Shown piece by piece: positions 34,732-42,770 of a stretch of DNA of 64,000 nucleotides. The notes beneath the pieces were generated by a model. It did no database searches. It was not told the DNA's origin and saw nothing but the letters and a program-made list of their open reading frames with translations. The first letter of the stretch is position 1. Each line of letters begins with the position of its first letter. The DNA comes from Hyphomicrobium sp. (lineage in GTDB: Bacteria; Pseudomonadota; Alphaproteobacteria; Rhizobiales; Hyphomicrobiaceae), in assembly GCF_003987725.1 (NCBI RefSeq), contig NZ_RXJH01000005.1, one strand, 5' to 3'. Position numbers and translations under genes: made by a program.

Positions 34732-37698
34732 ATGAAATCACCGACGAAAAAGCCGGCTGCCCGCCCCGGTTCCGAATTGATGAAGACGATCCACGTACGC
34801 GGGGCGCGTGAACACAATTTGAAAAACGTCGATCTCGAAATCCCGCGCGACGCGCTCGTCGTGTTCACGGGCCTGTCGGGATCGGGAAAATCGTCCCTCG
34901 CCTTCGATACGATCTATGCCGAGGGCCAGCGCCGCTACGTCGAAAGTCTGTCCGCCTACGCGCGCCAGTTCCTCGAGATGATGCAGAAGCCGGACGTCGA
35001 TCATATCGACGGCCTGTCGCCCGCCATCTCCATCGAGCAAAAAACCACCTCGAAAAATCCCCGCTCCACCGTCGGCACGGTGACGGAGATCTACGACTAT
35101 CTCCGTCTGCTGTTCGCCCGCGTCGGCGTCCCCTATTCGCCCGCGACCGGCCTCCCCATCGAGAGCCAGACCGTCGCGCAGATGGTCGACCGCGTGCTGG
35201 CGCTGCCCGAGGGCACCCGCCTTCTGATCCTCGCGCCCGTCGTGCGCGGCCGCAAAGGCGAATACCGCAAGGAAATCGCCGAGTGGCAGAAGAAGGGCTA
35301 CCAGCGCCTCAAGATCAACGGCACCGTCTACGACATCGGCGACGCCCCGAAACTCGACAAGAAATTCAAGCACGACATCGACGTCGTCGTCGATCGCATC
35401 GTCGTCAAGAAAGACCTCGGCACGCGCCTCGCGGATTCCTTCGAGCAGTCGCTGAAGCTCGCCGACGGCCTCGCCATCGCCGAATACGTCGACAAGCCGC
35501 TGTCGAAAGCCGAGACCGAAGGCGCGAACAAGTCGAAGAACGATACGCACGAACGCATCCTCTTCTCGTCCCGCTTCGCCTGCCCCGTCTCCGGCTTTAC
35601 GATCGACGAGATCGAGCCGCGGCTTTTTTCGTTCAACGCCCCCGCCGGCGCCTGCCCCGTCTGCGACGGCCTCGGCTCCGAGCTTCGCTTCGAACCGGAC
35701 CTCGTCGTGCCAGATGGCGCGCTCTCCCTCGAAAAGGGCGCGATCTATCCGTGGGCGAAAACCGGCGTCTCGTCTCCCTATTACGAACAGACGCTCGAAA
35801 GCCTCGCCAAGCACTACAAGGTTTCGATGAAGACGCCGTGGGAGCGCCTGCCGAAGCACGTGCAGCTGGCGATCCTCTTCGGCTCGGATGACGAAGACAT
35901 CACCTTCACCTACTGGGACGGCAACCGCAATTATTCGACCGAGAAACCGTTCGAAGGCGTCATCGGCAACATCGCCCGCCGCTTCAAGGAAACCGATAGC
36001 GACTGGGTCCGCGAAGAACTCTCCCGCTATCAGGCGGCACACCCCTGCGAAGGCTGCGGCGGCTACCGCCTGAAGCCGCAAGCGCTCGCGGTGAAAGTCG
36101 GCGGCAAGCACATCGGCGAGGTCTGCGATCTCTCGATCAAGGCCGCCAACGAGTGGTTCAGCGAAATCCCGAAGACGTTCACCAAGCAGCAATCCGAAAT
36201 CGCGACGCGCATCCTCAAGGAAATCCGCGACCGCCTGAAATTCCTGAACGACGTCGGCCTCACCTACCTCACGATGTCGCGCGCGTCCGGCACGCTGTCG
36301 GGCGGCGAAAGCCAGCGCATACGCCTCGCCTCGCAGATCGGCTCCGGCCTGACGGGCGTGCTCTACGTCCTTGACGAACCGTCCATCGGCCTCCACCAGC
36401 GCGACAACGACCGCCTGCTCGACACGCTGAAGCACCTGCGCGACATCGGTAATACCGTCATCGTCGTCGAGCACGATGAGGACGCGATCATGCACGCCGA
36501 CCACGTCGTCGACGTCGGCCCCGGCGCCGGCATCCACGGCGGCCGCGTCGTCGCGCAAGGCACGCCGCAGGACATCATGGACAATCCGGCGAGCCTCACC
36601 GGCGAATACCTGTCGGGCGTCCGCTACGTGCCGATCCCGAAAACCCGCCGCGCCCCCGACAAATCGAAAATGCTCACCGTCACCGGCGCGCGCGAGAACA
36701 ACCTGAAGAACGTCTCGGCCTCGATCCCCGTCGGCCTCTTCACCTGCATCACCGGCGTCTCGGGCGGCGGAAAATCGACGCTGCTCATCGACACGCTCTT
36801 CAAGGCCGTCGCGCGGAAGCTCAACAACGCCAAGGAGCACCCGGGCGAGCACGACAAGATCACCGGCATCGAGCACTTCGACAAGATCATCGACATCGAC
36901 CAGAGCCCGATCGGACGCACGCCGCGCTCGAACCCGGCGACCTACACCGGCGCCTTCACGCCCATCCGCGAATGGTTCGCAGGCCTCCCCGAAGCGAAAA
37001 CGCGCGGCTACGAGCCGGGCCGCTTCTCCTTCAACGTGAAAGGCGGACGCTGCGAAGTCTGCCAGGGCGACGGCGTCATCAAGATCGAGATGCACTTCCT
37101 GCCCGACGTCTACGTCACCTGCGAGGAATGCAAGGGCAAGCGCTACAATCGCGAGACGCTCGCCGTCACCTTCAAGGAGAAGTCCATCGCCGACGTGCTC
37201 GACATGACCGTCGAGGAAGGCGCCGAGTTCTTCAAGGCCGTGCCGTCGATACGCGACAAGCTCGAAACGCTCGCGCGCGTCGGCCTCGGCTACATCCACA
37301 TCGGCCAGCAGGCGACGACGCTATCAGGCGGCGAGGCGCAGCGCATCAAGCTCTCGAAGGAATTGAGCCGTCGCGCCACGGGACGCACGCTCTACATCCT
37401 CGACGAGCCGACGACCGGCCTCCACTTCCACGACGTCGCGAAACTCCTGGAGGTGCTGCACGAGCTCGCCGACGCGGGCAACACCGTCGTCGTCATCGAG
37501 CACAACCTCGAAGTCATCAAGACGGCCGACTGGGTCATCGACCTCGGCCCCGAAGGCGGCGACGGCGGCGGCACCATCGTGGCGGCCGGAACGCCCGAAG
37601 ACGTCGCCAAGACCAAGGAAAGCTATACCGGGCAGTATCTGAAGCCGGTCCTCGCCCGCAAACCCAAGCCCGCGAACAAGAAGCAGGCTGCGGAATAA
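34732..37698 (+). CDS. uvrA: Excinuclease ABC subunit A
   Basis: [10 protein letters not shown], two Walker A motifs, LSGGE signatures, Zn fingers. Confidence 0.98.
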
Positions 37699-37703
37699 AA
37701 AAT

Positions 37704-37895
37704 ATGGGGCGGCGATCCGGAGTTCCGCATCGACGAGACGAATTGGAAAGCCTTTCGCCGCGTCAGTTGGATGACGAAATCGCTCGATTGAAATCGCGCC
37801 TGCGATTCCTCAACGGTGAAGGCAAAGAATCCGCGTTGCGACGGCTCGCGGCGGTCCAGAAAATCCGCGAGCAAAAGGCGCAGGCGGCCGAATAA
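37704..37895 (+). CDS. Small hypothetical protein
   Basis: 63-aa helical ORF starting 5 nt after the uvrA stop. Confidence 0.45.
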   Translation: MGRRSGVPHRRDELESLSPRQLDDEIARLKSRLRFLNGEGKESALRRLAAVQKIREQKAQAAE

Positions 37896-37945
37896 CTTAC
37901 CCTCCCCCTCGCGGGGAGGGTGGCACGCAGCGCCGGGTGGGGGGA
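37896..37945. repeat. REP-like palindrome (partial)
   Basis: AACTTACCCTCCCCCTCGCGGGGAGGGTGGC, nearly identical to the start of 38522-38677. Confidence 0.7.
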
Positions 37946-38423: not shown

Positions 38424-38521
38424 GAGAATTCCCCGTTTTTATTATTGTCCACGGGGATCACATTAATTGATCCGCATGAGGAGCGATACGGGCGGGATGG
38501 AGTGATCCGCTGCCGCCGAGC

Positions 38522-38677
38522 AACTTACCCTCCCCCTTGCGGGGAGGGTGGCGCAAAGCGCGGCTTCCGGCCGGCTACGCGGAGCGGAGTCGGAAGCCGC
38601 AATCAAAAAGCGCCGGGTGGGGGCAGACCGAGAGAATTCCCCTCCCCCTTGCGGGGAGGGGTTAGGGGTGGGGGTCC
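38522..38677. repeat. REP-like multi-hairpin palindrome
   Basis: Two ccctccccct(t)gcggggaggg hairpins flanking a gcggcttccg/cggaagccgc-type stem. Confidence 0.75.
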
Positions 38678-38689
38678 GCAAACAAAACT

Positions 38690-39106
38690 CTAGAAAAATC
38701 GTTCGAGAAACGCCGCAACCTCATCCGAGATGCCGACGATCTTGTTCGTTGCCTGCCGGTAGAACTTGAAATTGAGCTCAGTCTCGGGCCGACCGTCGTC
38801 CCAATCGCTGAAACCCTTGAGCGTACTCCGACCCAACGGCCGCTTCGCCAGCGCCGTACGGCGGATCGTGACGCTCACGCGCGGAGTCTGCCGCTCGATA
38901 CCGGGCTTCCTGGGAGTAGCCTCAGCCGACGTAACAACGCCGCGCGCGACGAGGCCCTGGCCGCCCTCGTTCTCGCTCGCGAACACGAAAATCGTGTCGC
39001 CTTCCGAGATGAGCTTCCCGCCGTACATCGTCTTCTGCGCAGTGAACACGAACGTCCCGGCGCGGGGATCGCCAACTTCAGCCTTGATCGCGAACGCCAT
39101 GGTCAC
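38690..39106 (-). CDS. Conserved-looking hypothetical protein (possible PUA/EVE-like beta-barrel)
   Basis: GDTIFVFASE...GLVARGVV pattern; fold guess is inference; GGAG RBS. Confidence 0.65.
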   Translation of the reverse strand: MTMAFAIKAEVGDPRAGTFVFTAQKTMYGGKLISEGDTIFVFASENEGGQGLVARGVVTSAEATPRKPGIERQTPRVSVTIRRTALAKRPLGRSTLKGFSDWDDGRPETELNFKFYRQATNKIVGISDEVAAFLERFF

Positions 39107-39119
39107 TCCGCTCCTAGAT

Positions 39120-39203
39120 CAAGGAAGCTGCACGGGACAGTATTTGAAGCCGGTGCTGGCGCGAAAGCCGAAGCCCGCCAACAAGAAGCAGGCGGCGGAG
39201 TGA
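39120..39203 (+). pseudogene. uvrA: Displaced duplicate of the uvrA 3' end
   Basis: 39132-39203 encodes [23 protein letters not shown], identical in protein to uvrA 37627-37698. Confidence 0.92.
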
Positions 39204-39246
39204 CGGAGGCGCACCCCCGCCGCTGGCATCGACTTCCTGTTCAAAT

Positions 39247-40263
39247 TCAAAGGAACTTGAGAGACTCTTGAGAGAGACCCTTCCTTACAATTAGCGTGGG
39301 AAGATCTGCGTCGTCCGCCAGCTTTGCTGCTTTAAGGACGACCTTGCCTTGCTTAAGGGCGTCTCCGATTGACTGGCCACTAGCTAGTGCAGCGTAAAAG
39401 CGAGTCGAGAACAATGTTGCGGCACTGTCGGTGATTGAATCCGACATCGCAACGACTGCCCGTACTGTCTTCAAAAAAACATCCGCGCCCACCACTGTAT
39501 CGCACGCATTGAAGACCAATAGGTCCGGTGGGGAATGCGTAGCATCGATGGTCTCTTGCACCACCCCGAAGTCAAGCTCCACTCCCCCGTCTTCATCCAC
39601 ATCTCGATTATCGAATAATACCGCAGAGTCCCCACCATGCCCCGAAAAATGTATGACATTGGGCTTAAATTCATTGAGCGCGTCGAGCAAATCCTCTAAT
39701 CGCGCTGCGGGCAAATGTCGGACTTCGACATAATCGCGATTAGGCGACTTCTTTAACTCTTTGAGCACGTCACGCATTTCCATATCTGTACGCAGCGCAG
39801 CATCGCGAACCGGATTTGTAGTTAGGAACGCTATCCGAAGTTTCGCAGAACTCTTACCTTCTCTACTGGGTTTGGATTTTTGTGGATGGGGCATGCGAGG
39901 CCGGACAAATGAGAGACCTCCTGCGGCAGAAACTACGGGCGGAGAGGATGACGTAAATTTCTCCATCTTGCTAGGATCAGCGACGAATCGAACGATTTTG
40001 TCCTTATTATGCTGATAAAACTCAATTTGCTTGTACGCGGTAACGCCATCCTTCTTTTCCTGGTCGAATAAGCCAGCCTTTTTTAACGCCACGCCATTCT
40101 TCAAAACTTGCTCTCGAGTAAGCCCTACAGAGACGGCTATCTCGTCGACGGATTTAATGCGCGATTTGTGGTAATAAACCTCCTTGAAGATCGCCAACTT
40201 CAGCTCGGAACGACCGATAAATTCAACGGCTTCAATTATTTTCTTGTCTAATGCCACTATCAT
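39247..40263 (-). CDS. wHTH-CHAT (caspase-like protease) protein
   Basis: C-terminal CHAT with the IHFSGHG (His) and LVFNAC (Cys) dyad; N-terminal SVDEIAVSVGLTREQV..NGVALKKAGL winged-HTH pattern. Confidence 0.88.
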   Translation of the reverse strand: MIVALDKKIIEAVEFIGRSELKLAIFKEVYYHKSRIKSVDEIAVSVGLTREQVLKNGVALKKAGLFDQEKKDGVTAYKQIEFYQHNKDKIVRFVADPSKMEKFTSSSPPVVSAAGGLSFVRPRMPHPQKSKPSREGKSSAKLRIAFLTTNPVRDAALRTDMEMRDVLKELKKSPNRDYVEVRHLPAARLEDLLDALNEFKPNVIHFSGHGGDSAVLFDNRDVDEDGGVELDFGVVQETIDATHSPPDLLVFNACDTVVGADVFLKTVRAVVAMSDSITDSAATLFSTRFYAALASGQSIGDALKQGKVVLKAAKLADDADLPTLIVRKGLSQESLKFL

Positions 40264-40460
40264 TTTTCCTTGAGCGCGGCCTTCGAAAACATTTTACTTA
40301 TTTGGCTTTGGGAGGTGCCCAACGCGACGGCAATGTCGTTTTGCGTGTGCTCTTCCTTATTCTTGTTGAGGAGAGCGTAGACGAGCAGCTTCTTTATCGC
40401 TTGCAGCTCCTCTAGCAACGCATTCTCGTTTGATTGAGCCACGATAGCGACCTTTCTCAA
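40260..40460 (-). CDS. Small HTH protein 5
   Basis: LLEELQAIKKLL + TQNDIAVALGTSQSQISKMF; TTG start overlaps the upstream stop. Confidence 0.8.
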   Translation of the reverse strand: MRKVAIVAQSNENALLEELQAIKKLLVYALLNKNKEEHTQNDIAVALGTSQSQISKMFSKAALKEK

Positions 40461-40654
40461 TCCGCAGAAATCGAGCCGTGATTGACTTCTTTCGCGATCC
40501 CCTTCGGCAACATCCTGCTTAAGGTGGCCTCACTTACTCCGAGAGTCGCGGCAACCTGCTTTTGCTTATAACCGGAAGCCAAAGCCTGCAATATTAGCAG
40601 TTTCTTTATTGCGCTTAATTCCTCAAGAAGCGCTTCATCGGGCGAATGCGCCAT
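40457..40654 (-). CDS. Small HTH protein 4
   Basis: LLEELSAIKKLL + KQKQVAATLGVSEATLSRMLP. Confidence 0.85.
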   Translation of the reverse strand: MAHSPDEALLEELSAIKKLLILQALASGYKQKQVAATLGVSEATLSRMLPKGIAKEVNHGSISAD

Positions 40655-40655
40655 C

Positions 40656-40823
40656 TTACGTTTCCCTCTGTTTGAATTTTAGACCTTTGGGGAACATCCG
40701 GCTGACTTGGCTTCGATCAATACCAAGAGCCGAACCTATCTGCTCTTGAGTTGCCCCCTGCCAGAGGAGAGTGAACACCATCAACTTCTTAATCGCCTCA
40801 AGTTCCTCGGCAATTTTTTCCAT
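40656..40823 (-). CDS. Small HTH protein 3
   Basis: IAEELEAIKKLM + TQEQIGSALGIDRSQVSRMFP; GAGG RBS. Confidence 0.85.
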   Translation of the reverse strand: MEKIAEELEAIKKLMVFTLLWQGATQEQIGSALGIDRSQVSRMFPKGLKFKQRET

Positions 40824-40833
40824 TTGAACCTCA

Positions 40834-41058
40834 TCAGTTTTTCTTCTCTCGTTTAGCTGCCGACAGCGCAACGCTGACGGTATTTGGCGTAGAATCGCAA
40901 AGCGCTGCAATTTCCTTCGGCGCTAAACCAGCACGACTTAGGATGATCGCCTTTTCTTTCAGACTTGGGACGTTTGCGACCAGAGAAAGAGCTGTAAGCC
41001 GTATCAATACATCCAGTTTTGATTCGACCCGACTCATGACGTCATTTTCTTCGTTCAT
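40834..41058 (-). CDS. Small HTH protein 2 (sigma-region-4/LuxR-like HTH)
   Basis: KLDVLIRL + AGLAPKEIAALCDSTPNTVSVALS. Confidence 0.8.
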   Translation of the reverse strand: MNEENDVMSRVESKLDVLIRLTALSLVANVPSLKEKAIILSRAGLAPKEIAALCDSTPNTVSVALSAAKREKKN

Positions 41059-41357
41059 TTCATTCGCTCCTTGGTCAGCGGGTAGATATGCAGGGGCTTG
41101 CTCTCGTTCTTATCCCCCAGCTTGACAACGATGCCTGCTTCGACCCAGCGGGCCACCGTCTTGCTGAAATTGCTGGGATCAAGCTTCAATTCTTTGGCAA
41201 TTTCGCCCTGCAGTCTCGTCCCGTCACACAAGTTGTATGCGGCAATCTGCGTTTCACCAGGACTTTTCGGAGCCACAATTTGCAGAACCTTATCTTCAGA
41301 GAATGCTTGCCTCGCAGTCATGCTCAAGATCGCCCGCAACAAAGTTTCTTCGTACAT
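41055..41357 (-). CDS. Winged-HTH protein 1 (MarR-like)
   Basis: QGEIAKELKLDPSNFSKTVARWVEAGIV; GGAGG RBS. Confidence 0.85.
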   Translation of the reverse strand: MYEETLLRAILSMTARQAFSEDKVLQIVAPKSPGETQIAAYNLCDGTRLQGEIAKELKLDPSNFSKTVARWVEAGIVVKLGDKNESKPLHIYPLTKERMK

Positions 41358-41423
41358 CTTCCCTCCTATGACCCTACGGATAAGACCTATCAACAACGCT
41401 GATGACGATGAGAAATCGCGTAA

Positions 41424-41446
41424 TAAATTGAAGTTACTTAATTTTA
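41424..41446. promoter_or_regulatory. Imperfect AT-rich palindrome, candidate operator of the HTH-CHAT operon
   Basis: TAAATTGAAGT-T-ACTTAATTTTA; 9 of 11 positions pair. Confidence 0.4.
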
Positions 41447-41598
41447 TAGGATTTCACGCTTTGCCAGAACTTACTGGCCTTAGCTCTAGGGTGGGACCCG
41501 CGACTTTCAATTTATCCGCCCCAACGCGGCACATGGGGCGTCGGCTGATAGTTTCAAGTGGATTTTCTGGATTTTTTCTCAGTTTTCACGGATGCTCT

Positions 41599-41780
41599 AA
41601 AAAATCTTATCCCCGCCCTCTCCACTTCCCCCATAATCCCCTCACCCATCCGGCAAGGGCATCGCGCGAGAAGTCTCGATGGCGCTTCAGATGCCCACGC
41701 GCATCCGCGCTTAGACTGCGCTTCAGATGCCCACGCGCATCCGCGCTTACGCGCCGCTCGGATGGGGCAGCCTCACCCGC
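41599..41780 (+). repeat. Structured repeat R1 (5' part only, with an internal 32-nt tandem duplication)
   Basis: Shares AAAAATCTTATCCCCGCC...CATAATCCCCTCACCCATCCGGCAAGGGCATC and CGGATGGGGCAGCCTCACCCGC with R2/R3. Confidence 0.85.
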
Positions 41781-42360: not shown

Positions 42361-42770
42361 AAAAAAAACTTATCCCCGCCCCCATCGCTTCCCCCATAAT
42401 CCCCTCACCCATCCGGCAAGGGCATCGTGCGAGGCGTCGCGCGGCGCTCGGATGGGGCAGCCTCACCCGCTCGCGGAACGCGCGCGATGCGGTCAAGGCG
42501 GAAAGCAGGTCCGCACGGCATGAGAGAAACCGTGTGCGGAATATCCCGCTTCATTAAGTGACCTGCCGGAAACCTGATCTCTGGCTGTCACGGAGCGGAC
42601 CGGTTCCGAGACTTGAATTGCGAAGACCCAACGCCGCGGAACCCGTCCGCTTCGTGCTTTATTGCTTGCACACGGCGACTCCCCTCCAGGGAGCCGGCCG
42701 CCGTGTGCATTTGCTGTTTCGCCGGCCGCCAGCACATGCCTGCCGCGTCGTTCTTCGTTCAGTTCCGCGA
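42361..42770 (+). repeat. Structured repeat R2 (410 nt; candidate ncRNA or non-autonomous element)
   Basis: Near-identical to 45461-45841; multiple hairpins. Confidence 0.9.

Follow-up and report, generated by a model that had tools for sequence, protein, structure and literature searches.

What kind of system is encoded by five small genes for helix-turn-helix (HTH) proteins that end in a gene for a protease of the CHAT type, and does this arrangement form a unit at all? Such a locus lies on the minus strand at positions 39247-41357 of a 64,000-nucleotide (nt) stretch of Hyphomicrobium sp. contig NZ_RXJH01000005.1 (hereafter the window). Sequence comparisons indicate that its six genes, here called g1 to g6, are a cassette of a conserved, unnamed, self-contained and horizontally mobile family, and that what the window contains is the CHAT-bearing variant, with three genes of one small HTH type (type B), of a broader HTH-array family whose effector domains are interchangeable. 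Its function is most likely that of a toxin-antitoxin (TA)-like abortive-infection or anti-mobile-element system. As a candidate for a new system of defence or addiction the cassette is a strong one.

The six genes are a genuine operon-like, translationally coupled unit. A first-pass annotation of the same DNA had described six co-oriented minus-strand genes with overlapping or near-abutting stop and start codons, and all open reading frames (ORFs) and junctions were found as described, intact, head to tail and at the same coordinates. The first gene, g1 (41055-41357, 100 amino acids), has an ATG start behind an AGGAGG and is followed by g2 (40834-41058, 74 amino acids), g3 (40656-40823, 55 amino acids, from an internal ATG preceded by GAGG), g4 (40457-40654, 65 amino acids), g5 (40260-40460, 66 amino acids, from a TTG overlapping the g4 stop) and g6 (39247-40263, 338 amino acids). 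There are 4-nt overlaps at g1/g2, g4/g5 and g5/g6, with gaps of 1 nt at g3/g4 and 10 nt at g2/g3. A longer g3 of 84 residues, starting at a TTG at 40910, was rejected because it would overlap g2 by 77 nt and because orthologues begin near the MEK...EEL helix. The cassette had also been called richer in A and T than its flanks, and its G+C content (GC) is indeed 0.492 compared with 0.598 for the whole window; an equally low value was reached in 3 of 619 sliding windows of cassette length, all three of which overlap the cassette, and the cassette is the lowest-GC stretch of its length in the window.

The same layout recurs in distant genomes. Full-length homologues of g6 fall into about 60 clusters at 90% identity, mostly from Alphaproteobacteria, and their individual neighbourhoods repeat the cassette layout: upstream of them, tblastn found genes like g1, g2 and g3-g5 in Sphingomonadaceae, Rhodospirillaceae, Hyphomicrobiales and Bradyrhizobium, and small HTH genes without g1 in Terriglobales. 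Cassette loci are also found in Mesorhizobium and in a Bathyarchaeota metagenome-assembled genome (MAG). With g1 as bait we obtained 197 confirmed metagenome matches, and the ORFs of 80 fetched loci (individual loci are cited by L numbers) were classified with hidden Markov models for g1, for small HTH proteins of the g2 type (type A) and of the g3-g5 type (type B), and for the effector, that is the last gene. The order g1-A(1-2)-B(1-3)-effector was present in nearly every sufficiently long locus. Non-redundant architectures with a terminal effector comprised g1-A-B (21 loci), g1-A-B-B (20), g1-A-B-B-B (12, the form in the window), g1-A-A-B-B (5) and a few oddities. The first-pass annotation had named the gene neighbourhood of the CHAT protein and the HTH genes as a check, and here the order is kept in about 64 non-redundant loci, drawn from Alphaproteobacteria, Acidobacteriota and an archaeal MAG, a recurrence that places it far beyond chance.

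The last gene product had been described as a winged HTH (wHTH) fused to a CHAT domain with an intact His/Cys dyad, and both parts of that description are borne out. The N-terminal domain of g6 (residues 1-105, 39949-40263) is an ArsR-like wHTH common to all effector variants, with Foldseek matches to ArsR and HlyU; the linker (residues ~106-140, 39844-39948) is predicted to be disordered; and the CHAT caspase-like protease domain (residues ~141-338 plus the stop codon, 39247-39843) matches PF12770 in Pfam at 3e-12 and carries His209 (HFSGHG) and Cys254 (NAC). In the AlphaFold2 (AF2) model the mean predicted local distance difference test score (pLDDT) is 87, with values above 90 in the wHTH region and below 50 in residues 106-135, and a compact CHAT domain at ~141-326. 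The dyad residues His209 (FSGHG) and Cys254 are invariant in 25 homologues. Among structures in the PDB, the best Foldseek match to g6 is 8TL0, the SAVED-CHAT filament in its activated state (E 2e-14, 26% identity, root-mean-square deviation 2.6 Å), followed by caspases-3/7 and separase. A profile made from the 25 homologues matches 8TL0 (E 4e-29); in the alignment HFSGHG stands opposite HFIGHG, and VLNAC opposite VLNAC. The linkers of homologues carry two motifs, TKRxP and SFxK, of which the TKR is invariant in effectors of the X type (see below) and present in most of the CHAT type; in g6 of the window the TKR motif is absent and the second is kept as SFVR.

The CHAT domain is one of three alternatives on this scaffold. 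In many of the loci found with g1 as bait, the last gene matches the g6 profile over the wHTH and linker only, and with these two parts constant the C-terminal domain is CHAT, TIR or a domain that we call X. The wHTH domains of CHAT-type and X-type effectors match each other at 99.9% probability in hhalign (E 5e-38). Domain X, carried by most such proteins, spans ~170 residues with invariant DWGGE..D, AFAFKGPG, GDQ and IDGxDS motifs. When a full-length X-type effector was used as query, 648 clusters (90% identity) were returned, with all top matches X-type; this form is the commonest effector, much more numerous than the CHAT type. The TIR-bearing effector, seen in one locus (L140), matches TIR_2 at 2e-20 and the PADLOC profile PDC-S66 over positions 112-279 at E 1e-62. 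Exchange has taken place at a short evolutionary distance, because the nearest g1 relatives whose context could be read, at 80% identity, precede A, B and an effector of the X type, not of the CHAT type. The CHAT protease is therefore one interchangeable effector of the family and not its defining part, since TIR or X replaces it in relatives. The absence of nuclease and ATPase genes noted in the first-pass annotation holds for the window, with the correction that relatives carry TIR or the uncharacterised X in place of CHAT.

Domain X had no match in Pfam, PADLOC or NCBIfam, or by sequence in the PDB; a PDB profile search with X-type effectors matched the wHTH alone, and the Foldseek search with the full-length AF2 model was dominated by the same domain. 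The order of its elements (helix, three strands, helix, strand), together with its conserved acidic and Lys residues, may resemble a restriction-endonuclease-like fold. X is an uncharacterised domain of the alpha/beta class and, we infer, the killing domain of these effectors. Two loci (L129, 5253-6532; L149, 2361-3636) have a second module directly downstream of the X-type effector, made up of three small HTH genes that resemble sigma-factor region 4 and a gene for a ~170-residue protein with an RNxxGH motif. This protein gave weak HEPN matches (Swt1/SAV2148-like) and may be a fourth effector type lacking a wHTH. In another locus (L181) a gene for a 237-residue Hypoth_Ymh protein (PF09509; 6832-7545) lies between the HTH array and the X-type effector; Abi_C, HipA, two integrases and a resolvase are encoded there as well.

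A very large sister clade of CHAT proteins bears on how far the array belongs to the effector. Its members, found in more than 584 species genomes, are single proteins of ~350 residues in which a coiled-coil N-terminus of ~150 residues takes the place of the wHTH, and the coiled coil matches positions 1-137 of PDC-S66 (E as low as 1e-16). CHAT homologues without the HTH array had been named in the first-pass annotation as a possible objection to the proposed system, and such single genes do exist; nearly all wHTH-type effectors with upstream DNA at hand nevertheless have the array. As the N-terminal module differs, the sister clade points to modularity and does not refute the system. The modules thus form a set in which either a coiled coil or a wHTH with its HTH array is combined with CHAT, TIR or X. 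One sister coiled-coil-CHAT gene, on the Agrobacterium tumefaciens plasmid pAt1D1460 (L174, 30042-44542), lies between an HxsABC radical-SAM cluster and genes for an AAA ATPase, a helicase and a reverse transcriptase, a neighbourhood that is defence-island-like.

All six proteins were compared with Pfam, PADLOC, NCBIfam and PHROGs, and the prediction that every product contains an HTH was upheld, the motif being detected in all six, mostly under Pfam thresholds. PADLOC, NCBIfam and PHROGs assigned none of the six to a system or family and returned weak generic HTH, sigma and CARF-wHTH matches only. The first gene, g1, encodes an ArsR/MarR-like wHTH protein (MarR_2, 4e-5) and is the hallmark of the cassette, with invariant NLCDG, GNFSR and RW motifs. 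It has 89 homologues at 47% identity or more, and 172 clusters (50% identity, E ≤ 1e-10) among 1.84 billion proteins. Residues 40-46 form an invariant A-x-N-x-C-D-G with a single conserved cysteine just before the HTH, at what we take to be the place of the metal- or redox-sensing cysteines of ArsR/SmtB repressors; g1 could be a ligand- or redox-responsive switch. A kinship between g1 and the wHTH of the effector, as a hint of heterodimerisation, was not supported, the hhalign probability being 19-23% only.

The remaining small proteins are, in essence, stand-alone HTH domains like region 4 of sigma-70 factors. The type A protein g2, sigma-70 region-4/GerE-like with an N-terminal helix before the HTH, matches Sigma70_r4_2 at 5e-4 and has orthologues at the matching position in other loci. 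Of the three type B proteins, g3, the third B counting from the effector, matches HTH_23 at 4e-5 and aligns over residues 2-49 to positions 173-220 of the 227 in the SigB/F/G model; g4, of an SEATxSRMLPKG subfamily that is second from the effector in other loci, matches HTH_23 at 1.4e-6, above the Pfam threshold, and region 4 of ECF sigma factors at 5.9e-5; and g5, which adjoins the effector, gives HTH_3 and Sigma70_r4 matches at ~5e-3, the C-terminal HTH of IetA at 1e-4 and the ParB/RepB HTH at 8e-6. In NCBIfam, almost the whole length of g3-g5 aligns to region 4, the final ~48 residues, of the SigB/F/G and ECF sigma models. These sigma matches lie far below the cut-offs because each protein consists of that one domain only, and no sigma-70 region 2 is present in g2-g5 (55-74 residues), region 4 alone being aligned. 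The E-E-L-x-A-I-K-K-L stretch that the first-pass annotation had taken for an additional shared amphipathic helix must be reinterpreted on this basis: since the whole small protein aligns to region 4, it is the first helix of the region-4-like (4.1 + 4.2) fold, with no appended coiled coil.

The same annotation had regarded g3-g5 as paralogues of a single design. Their relatedness is confirmed (42-50% mutual identity), but they are not recent copies. Each is nearer to its positional orthologue elsewhere (55-57%), namely g3 to L004a (57%), g4 to L004b (55%) and g5 to the sole B protein of L081 (56%), and the B subfamilies keep their rank relative to the effector across loci. Because they are closer to positional orthologues than to their neighbours, g3-g5 are old, differentiated paralogues, and such ancient, position-specific divergence is as would be expected of distinct subunits. 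The A and B profiles are themselves homologous (hhalign 96.6%, E 6e-10).

Upstream of g1 lies a non-coding region (41358-41599, minus strand) that is AT-rich at 41400-41470 and is the putative promoter and operator region of the cassette. In 30 of 75 non-redundant loci a TGAATA is found 70-90 nt upstream of the g1 start (for example in L136, L152 and L173), compared with a mean of 1.6 and a maximum of 5 in shuffles. The inverse, TATTCA, occurs in 9 loci at about -20 and in 12 at about -180, and a CTTGAA resembling a -35 element often comes after TGAATA. TGAATA/TATTCA is probably an operator around the cassette promoter, and its conservation upstream of g1 points to autoregulation. A consensus scan for promoters and terminators gave nothing useful, and the upstream region in the window showed no consensus sigma-70 promoter.

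The cassette and its upstream region also form the unit by which related chromosomes differ. One contig of a related organism, from run X23, joins position 39175 to 41600 across 2375 nt that cannot be aligned at 80% likeness, which delimits a variable segment of 2424 nt (39176-41599, GC 0.493) holding the cassette and the upstream region. Altogether five runs (X23, X24, X29, X26 and X22) hold the flanks without the cassette, the four besides X23 having zero depth over 39176-41599 at ≥80-85% likeness. Immediately past the g6 stop there is a 75-nt remnant, copied from the 3' end of uvrA (39125-39199, plus strand), a direct repeat 83% identical to the true end (37620-37694), 1.5 kb away, and still visible in the translation of the ORF at 38766-39203; it looks like a recombination scar from a donor in which the cassette stood immediately downstream of uvrA. 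Low GC, the uvrA remnant, a relative whose slot is filled by different DNA, and copies that sit beside an integrase or terminate a satellite-like element together show mobility; the cassette has been horizontally acquired, and its chromosomal slot is polymorphic. One copy adjoins a P4-type integrase and an IS3 element. In another pair of loci (L081/L082, 1-9005) a CHAT-type cassette, whose g6 is 62% identical to that of the window, forms the final piece of cargo in a satellite- or prophage-like element with genes for a DUF5906 primase-like protein and the large subunit of a terminase.

A minus-strand ORF of 138 residues (38690-39106), which lies between uvrA and the cassette, is about 90% conserved in related organisms and for that reason belongs to the flank, not to the cassette; it had no match in Pfam, PADLOC, NCBIfam or PHROGs. 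GC-rich short intergenic repeats (REP/RIME-like, some palindromic) stand on both sides of the cassette, at 37884-37933, 38512-38561 and 38624-38673, at 41599-41780 against 42362-42470, and at 41682-41753, and include a 36-nt tandem pair. An Rfam scan of 37.5-43 kb, these repeats included, gave no match.

What, then, does the cassette do? The account towards which we lean, with modest confidence, is that the small HTH proteins hold the effector inactive and that their loss during infection leads to effector clustering, protease activation and cell arrest. The products of g1-g5, made in fixed ratios, would bind the cassette operator or DNA together with the wHTH of the effector, or bind that wHTH itself, or do both, and such binding would keep the operon repressed and the effector dispersed and inactive. 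Infection would remove, titrate or relocate the small HTH proteins; the freed wHTH-effector would then cluster, and clustering would turn on CHAT, as filament formation does in SAVED-CHAT. Growth would be stopped by CHAT proteolysis of cellular proteins, or possibly of the small HTH proteins. The candidacy as a conflict system put forward in the first-pass annotation gains from these results: the cassette behaves like one because it is horizontally acquired, because its slot is polymorphic between relatives and because its effector domain can be swapped, and CHAT and TIR are typical of abortive-infection effectors.

The genomic neighbourhood lends this account a measure of support. Among some 30 loci whose neighbours were listed, several have defence or TA genes within ~6-10 kb, including AbiEi/AbiEii (twice), DruE, a type II restriction-modification pair, MADS-like proteins, a type IV restriction endonuclease, PIN/VapC-like and Gp49/HigB-like pairs, and Abi_C with HipA and integrases. 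A conserved order near defence islands had been expected to support novelty; the order is conserved and some neighbours are of this kind, but many loci are lone inserts among housekeeping genes (rnpA-yidC, lepA, dnaE, guaA) and not in recognisable defence islands. Several further points weigh against the account that we favour. The association with defence genes is moderate and suggestive, being a matter of raw counts, and the neighbours of the window cassette itself are uvrA and a sulfatase. The window carries only a degenerate TGAATA (within 41400-41470), the HTH matches of the small proteins are mostly below the curated thresholds of Pfam and NCBIfam, and the role of X as a toxin is presumed, domain X having no recognisable fold match. 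The g1 profile gave no confirmed match among viral contigs and g6 none by tblastn among phage genomes, and the plasmids searched gave CHAT-domain matches only, with no full-length wHTH-CHAT. As a separate observation, one cassette (L090, 5969-11963) is followed ~3.5 kb downstream by genes for a 982-residue TPR-CHAT protein, a sortase and a VIT-vWA protein; this TPR-CHAT is a second, unrelated CHAT system in the neighbourhood.

The nearest competitor is a selfish type II TA system with multiple antitoxins, in which labile small HTH proteins neutralise the wHTH-effector and autorepress, and in which post-segregational killing takes place with no dedicated anti-phage role. Small DNA-binding genes that come first, a toxin-like enzyme that comes last, stop/start overlaps between them, the many unrelated chromosomal places at which the cassette is inserted alone, an upstream motif whose conservation would suit autorepression, and neighbours that are in some cases TA pairs themselves all fit it. 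We nevertheless think it unlikely, since three to five different, anciently diverged "antitoxins" per toxin are unlike known type II systems, and since the swapping of CHAT, TIR and X and the modules held in common with PDC-S66 are typical of immune systems; the two readings overlap in any case, many TA systems also being defensive. It is less probable still, to a degree that we would call doubtful, that the cassette is a DNA-sensing nucleoprotein trap, in which the small HTH proteins, as co-sensors rather than inhibitors, co-polymerise with the wHTH of the effector on invading (unmodified, linear or replicating) DNA and so activate the effector. All six proteins have DNA-binding-type folds, the effector is conserved in its wHTH and linker, and the closest solved CHAT protein is activated by filament formation (bioRxiv 10.1101/2023.06.23.546230), as such a trap would have it. 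The cassette nonetheless has no discriminator between self and foreign DNA (it encodes no methylase or NTPase and, in the window, no nuclease), and recognition helices that are highly conserved across phyla are less suited to varied foreign DNA than to an unchanging operator or protein partner.

A switch like ImmR/ImmA or CapH/CapP, in which a signal causes CHAT to cleave the HTH repressors and thereby derepress genes of a mobile element or of immunity, is very improbable in our estimation. It would account for the HTH proteins that adjoin a protease and for the copies within mobile elements (beside an integrase, or at the end of an element bearing primase and terminase), and activated CRISPR-associated proteases do cleave sigma-related proteins (10.1101/2023.06.23.546230). 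It is hard to reconcile with the replacement of the protease, in otherwise identical cassettes, by TIR or X, neither of which can cleave repressors, and with the isolation of most cassettes, which have no conserved flanking operon to regulate; g6 is, moreover, not a metallopeptidase of the ImmA/CapP type. That unrelated transcription factors and a protease are adjacent by accident, or that the genes are chance ORFs in AT-rich DNA, is scarcely credible: the individual HTH matches are weak, but order and content are kept in dozens of distant genomes with each gene conserved as a protein, and synteny refutes the idea.

A more speculative version of the inhibition of the effector by small HTH proteins, one to which we give little weight, supposes that the region-4-like arrays are guards, that is decoys of the part of the host sigma factor that phages seize. 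Phage appropriators and anti-sigma proteins (AsiA-type factors) take hold of this part of the host sigma factor. Once a decoy had been captured or driven off DNA, the wHTH-effector would be released, would cluster and would fire, and the anciently diverged A and B paralogues would be different baits. If so, the family would embody a new sensing principle, in which immunity is triggered by the attempted takeover of host transcription and sensing requires no NTPase, cyclase or nucleic-acid-guided component.

If this is an immune or addiction system, it adds to those known a family with an unusual control layer, in which three families of small HTH or wHTH proteins, together with the wHTH of the effector, stand in for NTPases, cyclases and guide RNAs. 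With the 172 clusters of g1 and the 648 clusters from the X-type effector search, the family is not uncommon among bacteria of soil and fresh water. The cassette offers a minimal natural setting (~2.1-2.4 kb, at most six genes) for the control of a caspase-like protease, a TIR domain and an unknown domain by the same partners; a likely role is assigned to the unannotated domain X, and PDC-S66 is tied to a wider set of interchangeable modules. For annotation, it follows that genes like g1-g5 should not be taken for ordinary transcription factors.

The first-pass annotation had not recognised the architecture as a named system, and we agree: PADLOC v2 does not call the cassette, NCBIfam has no name for it, and the literature searched, including one conflict-systems paper from the Aravind laboratory, holds no description of an HTH-array CHAT/TIR system, with the limit that a newer DefenseFinder release, or a paper beyond the literature searched, may name one. 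Closest to g6, both in solved structure and in sequence, is the CHAT domain of SAVED-CHAT from the Haliangium ochraceum type III-B CRISPR/CBASS hybrid (8TL0), an immune protease activated by filament formation (bioRxiv 10.1101/2023.06.23.546230). Both proteins fuse a compact CHAT domain to an N-terminal sensor or regulatory domain, but in g6 this is the ArsR-like wHTH seen in the AF2 model and Foldseek searches, with no SAVED domain; the PADLOC SAVED_CHAT match covers profile positions 279-453, the CHAT part, only. No Cas10, CD-NTase or PCaspase gene or CRISPR array is present among the window ORFs at 36-45 kb or in the annotated related loci. Like the cassette, Craspase (gRAMP-Csx29 TPR-CHAT, Csx30, Csx31, RpoE) combines a CHAT protease with sigma-related proteins in one locus, and it is a precedent for protease control of sigma/region-4-type proteins in immunity (PMC10028731). 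The cassette differs in having no TPR, gRAMP, crRNA or Csx30/31, and its region-4-like domains are isolated, not parts of a full ECF sigma factor; g6 had no Cas match above noise, and no CRISPR-associated genes lie near the cassette in the window.

With ImmR/ImmA and CapH/CapP, where signal-dependent cleavage derepresses transcription (10.1101/2022.04.27.489752), the cassette shares one or more HTH proteins encoded beside a protease. Their proteases are metallopeptidases upstream of a regulated operon, while g6 carries a clan CD protease, for which relatives have TIR or X in exchange, and has no operon to regulate; none of the six cassette proteins matches a metallopeptidase family in Pfam. 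Type IV Thoeris uses both TIR and caspase-like chemistries, which also occur in the cassette family, and establishes that a caspase-like protease can be an abortive effector (10.1101/2024.10.24.620036). There, TIR and caspase act in series through N7-cADPR within one operon, whereas in the cassette TIR and CHAT are alternatives on one wHTH and are never found together. The match of g6 to Borvo (BovA) is not full-length (E 0.0058 over 49 of 720 profile positions), and no gasdermin gene is present among the cassette ORFs within the borders 39175/41600. The cassette thus falls outside SAVED-CHAT/CCaCC, Craspase, Borvo, PDC-S66, type IV Thoeris and the gasdermin systems, a defining component being missing each time.

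The PADLOC candidate PDC-S66 is a single gene for a coiled coil joined to TIR, and both of its modules are shared with relatives of the family, the TIR with the effector of L140 and the coiled coil with the sister CHAT clade; g6 of the window itself has no PDC-S66 match, its wHTH replaces the coiled coil, and the wHTH-effector, unlike the single-gene PDC-S66, always travels with, and may need, three to six small HTH genes. Type II TA and AbiE systems resemble the cassette in that DNA-binding genes stand upstream of, and are coupled to, a potentially toxic enzyme, in a compact, mobile and probably autoregulated unit. Where those systems have one antitoxin, the cassette has three to five HTH proteins of three families, and its "toxin" carries a wHTH of its own to which CHAT, TIR or X is joined in turn.

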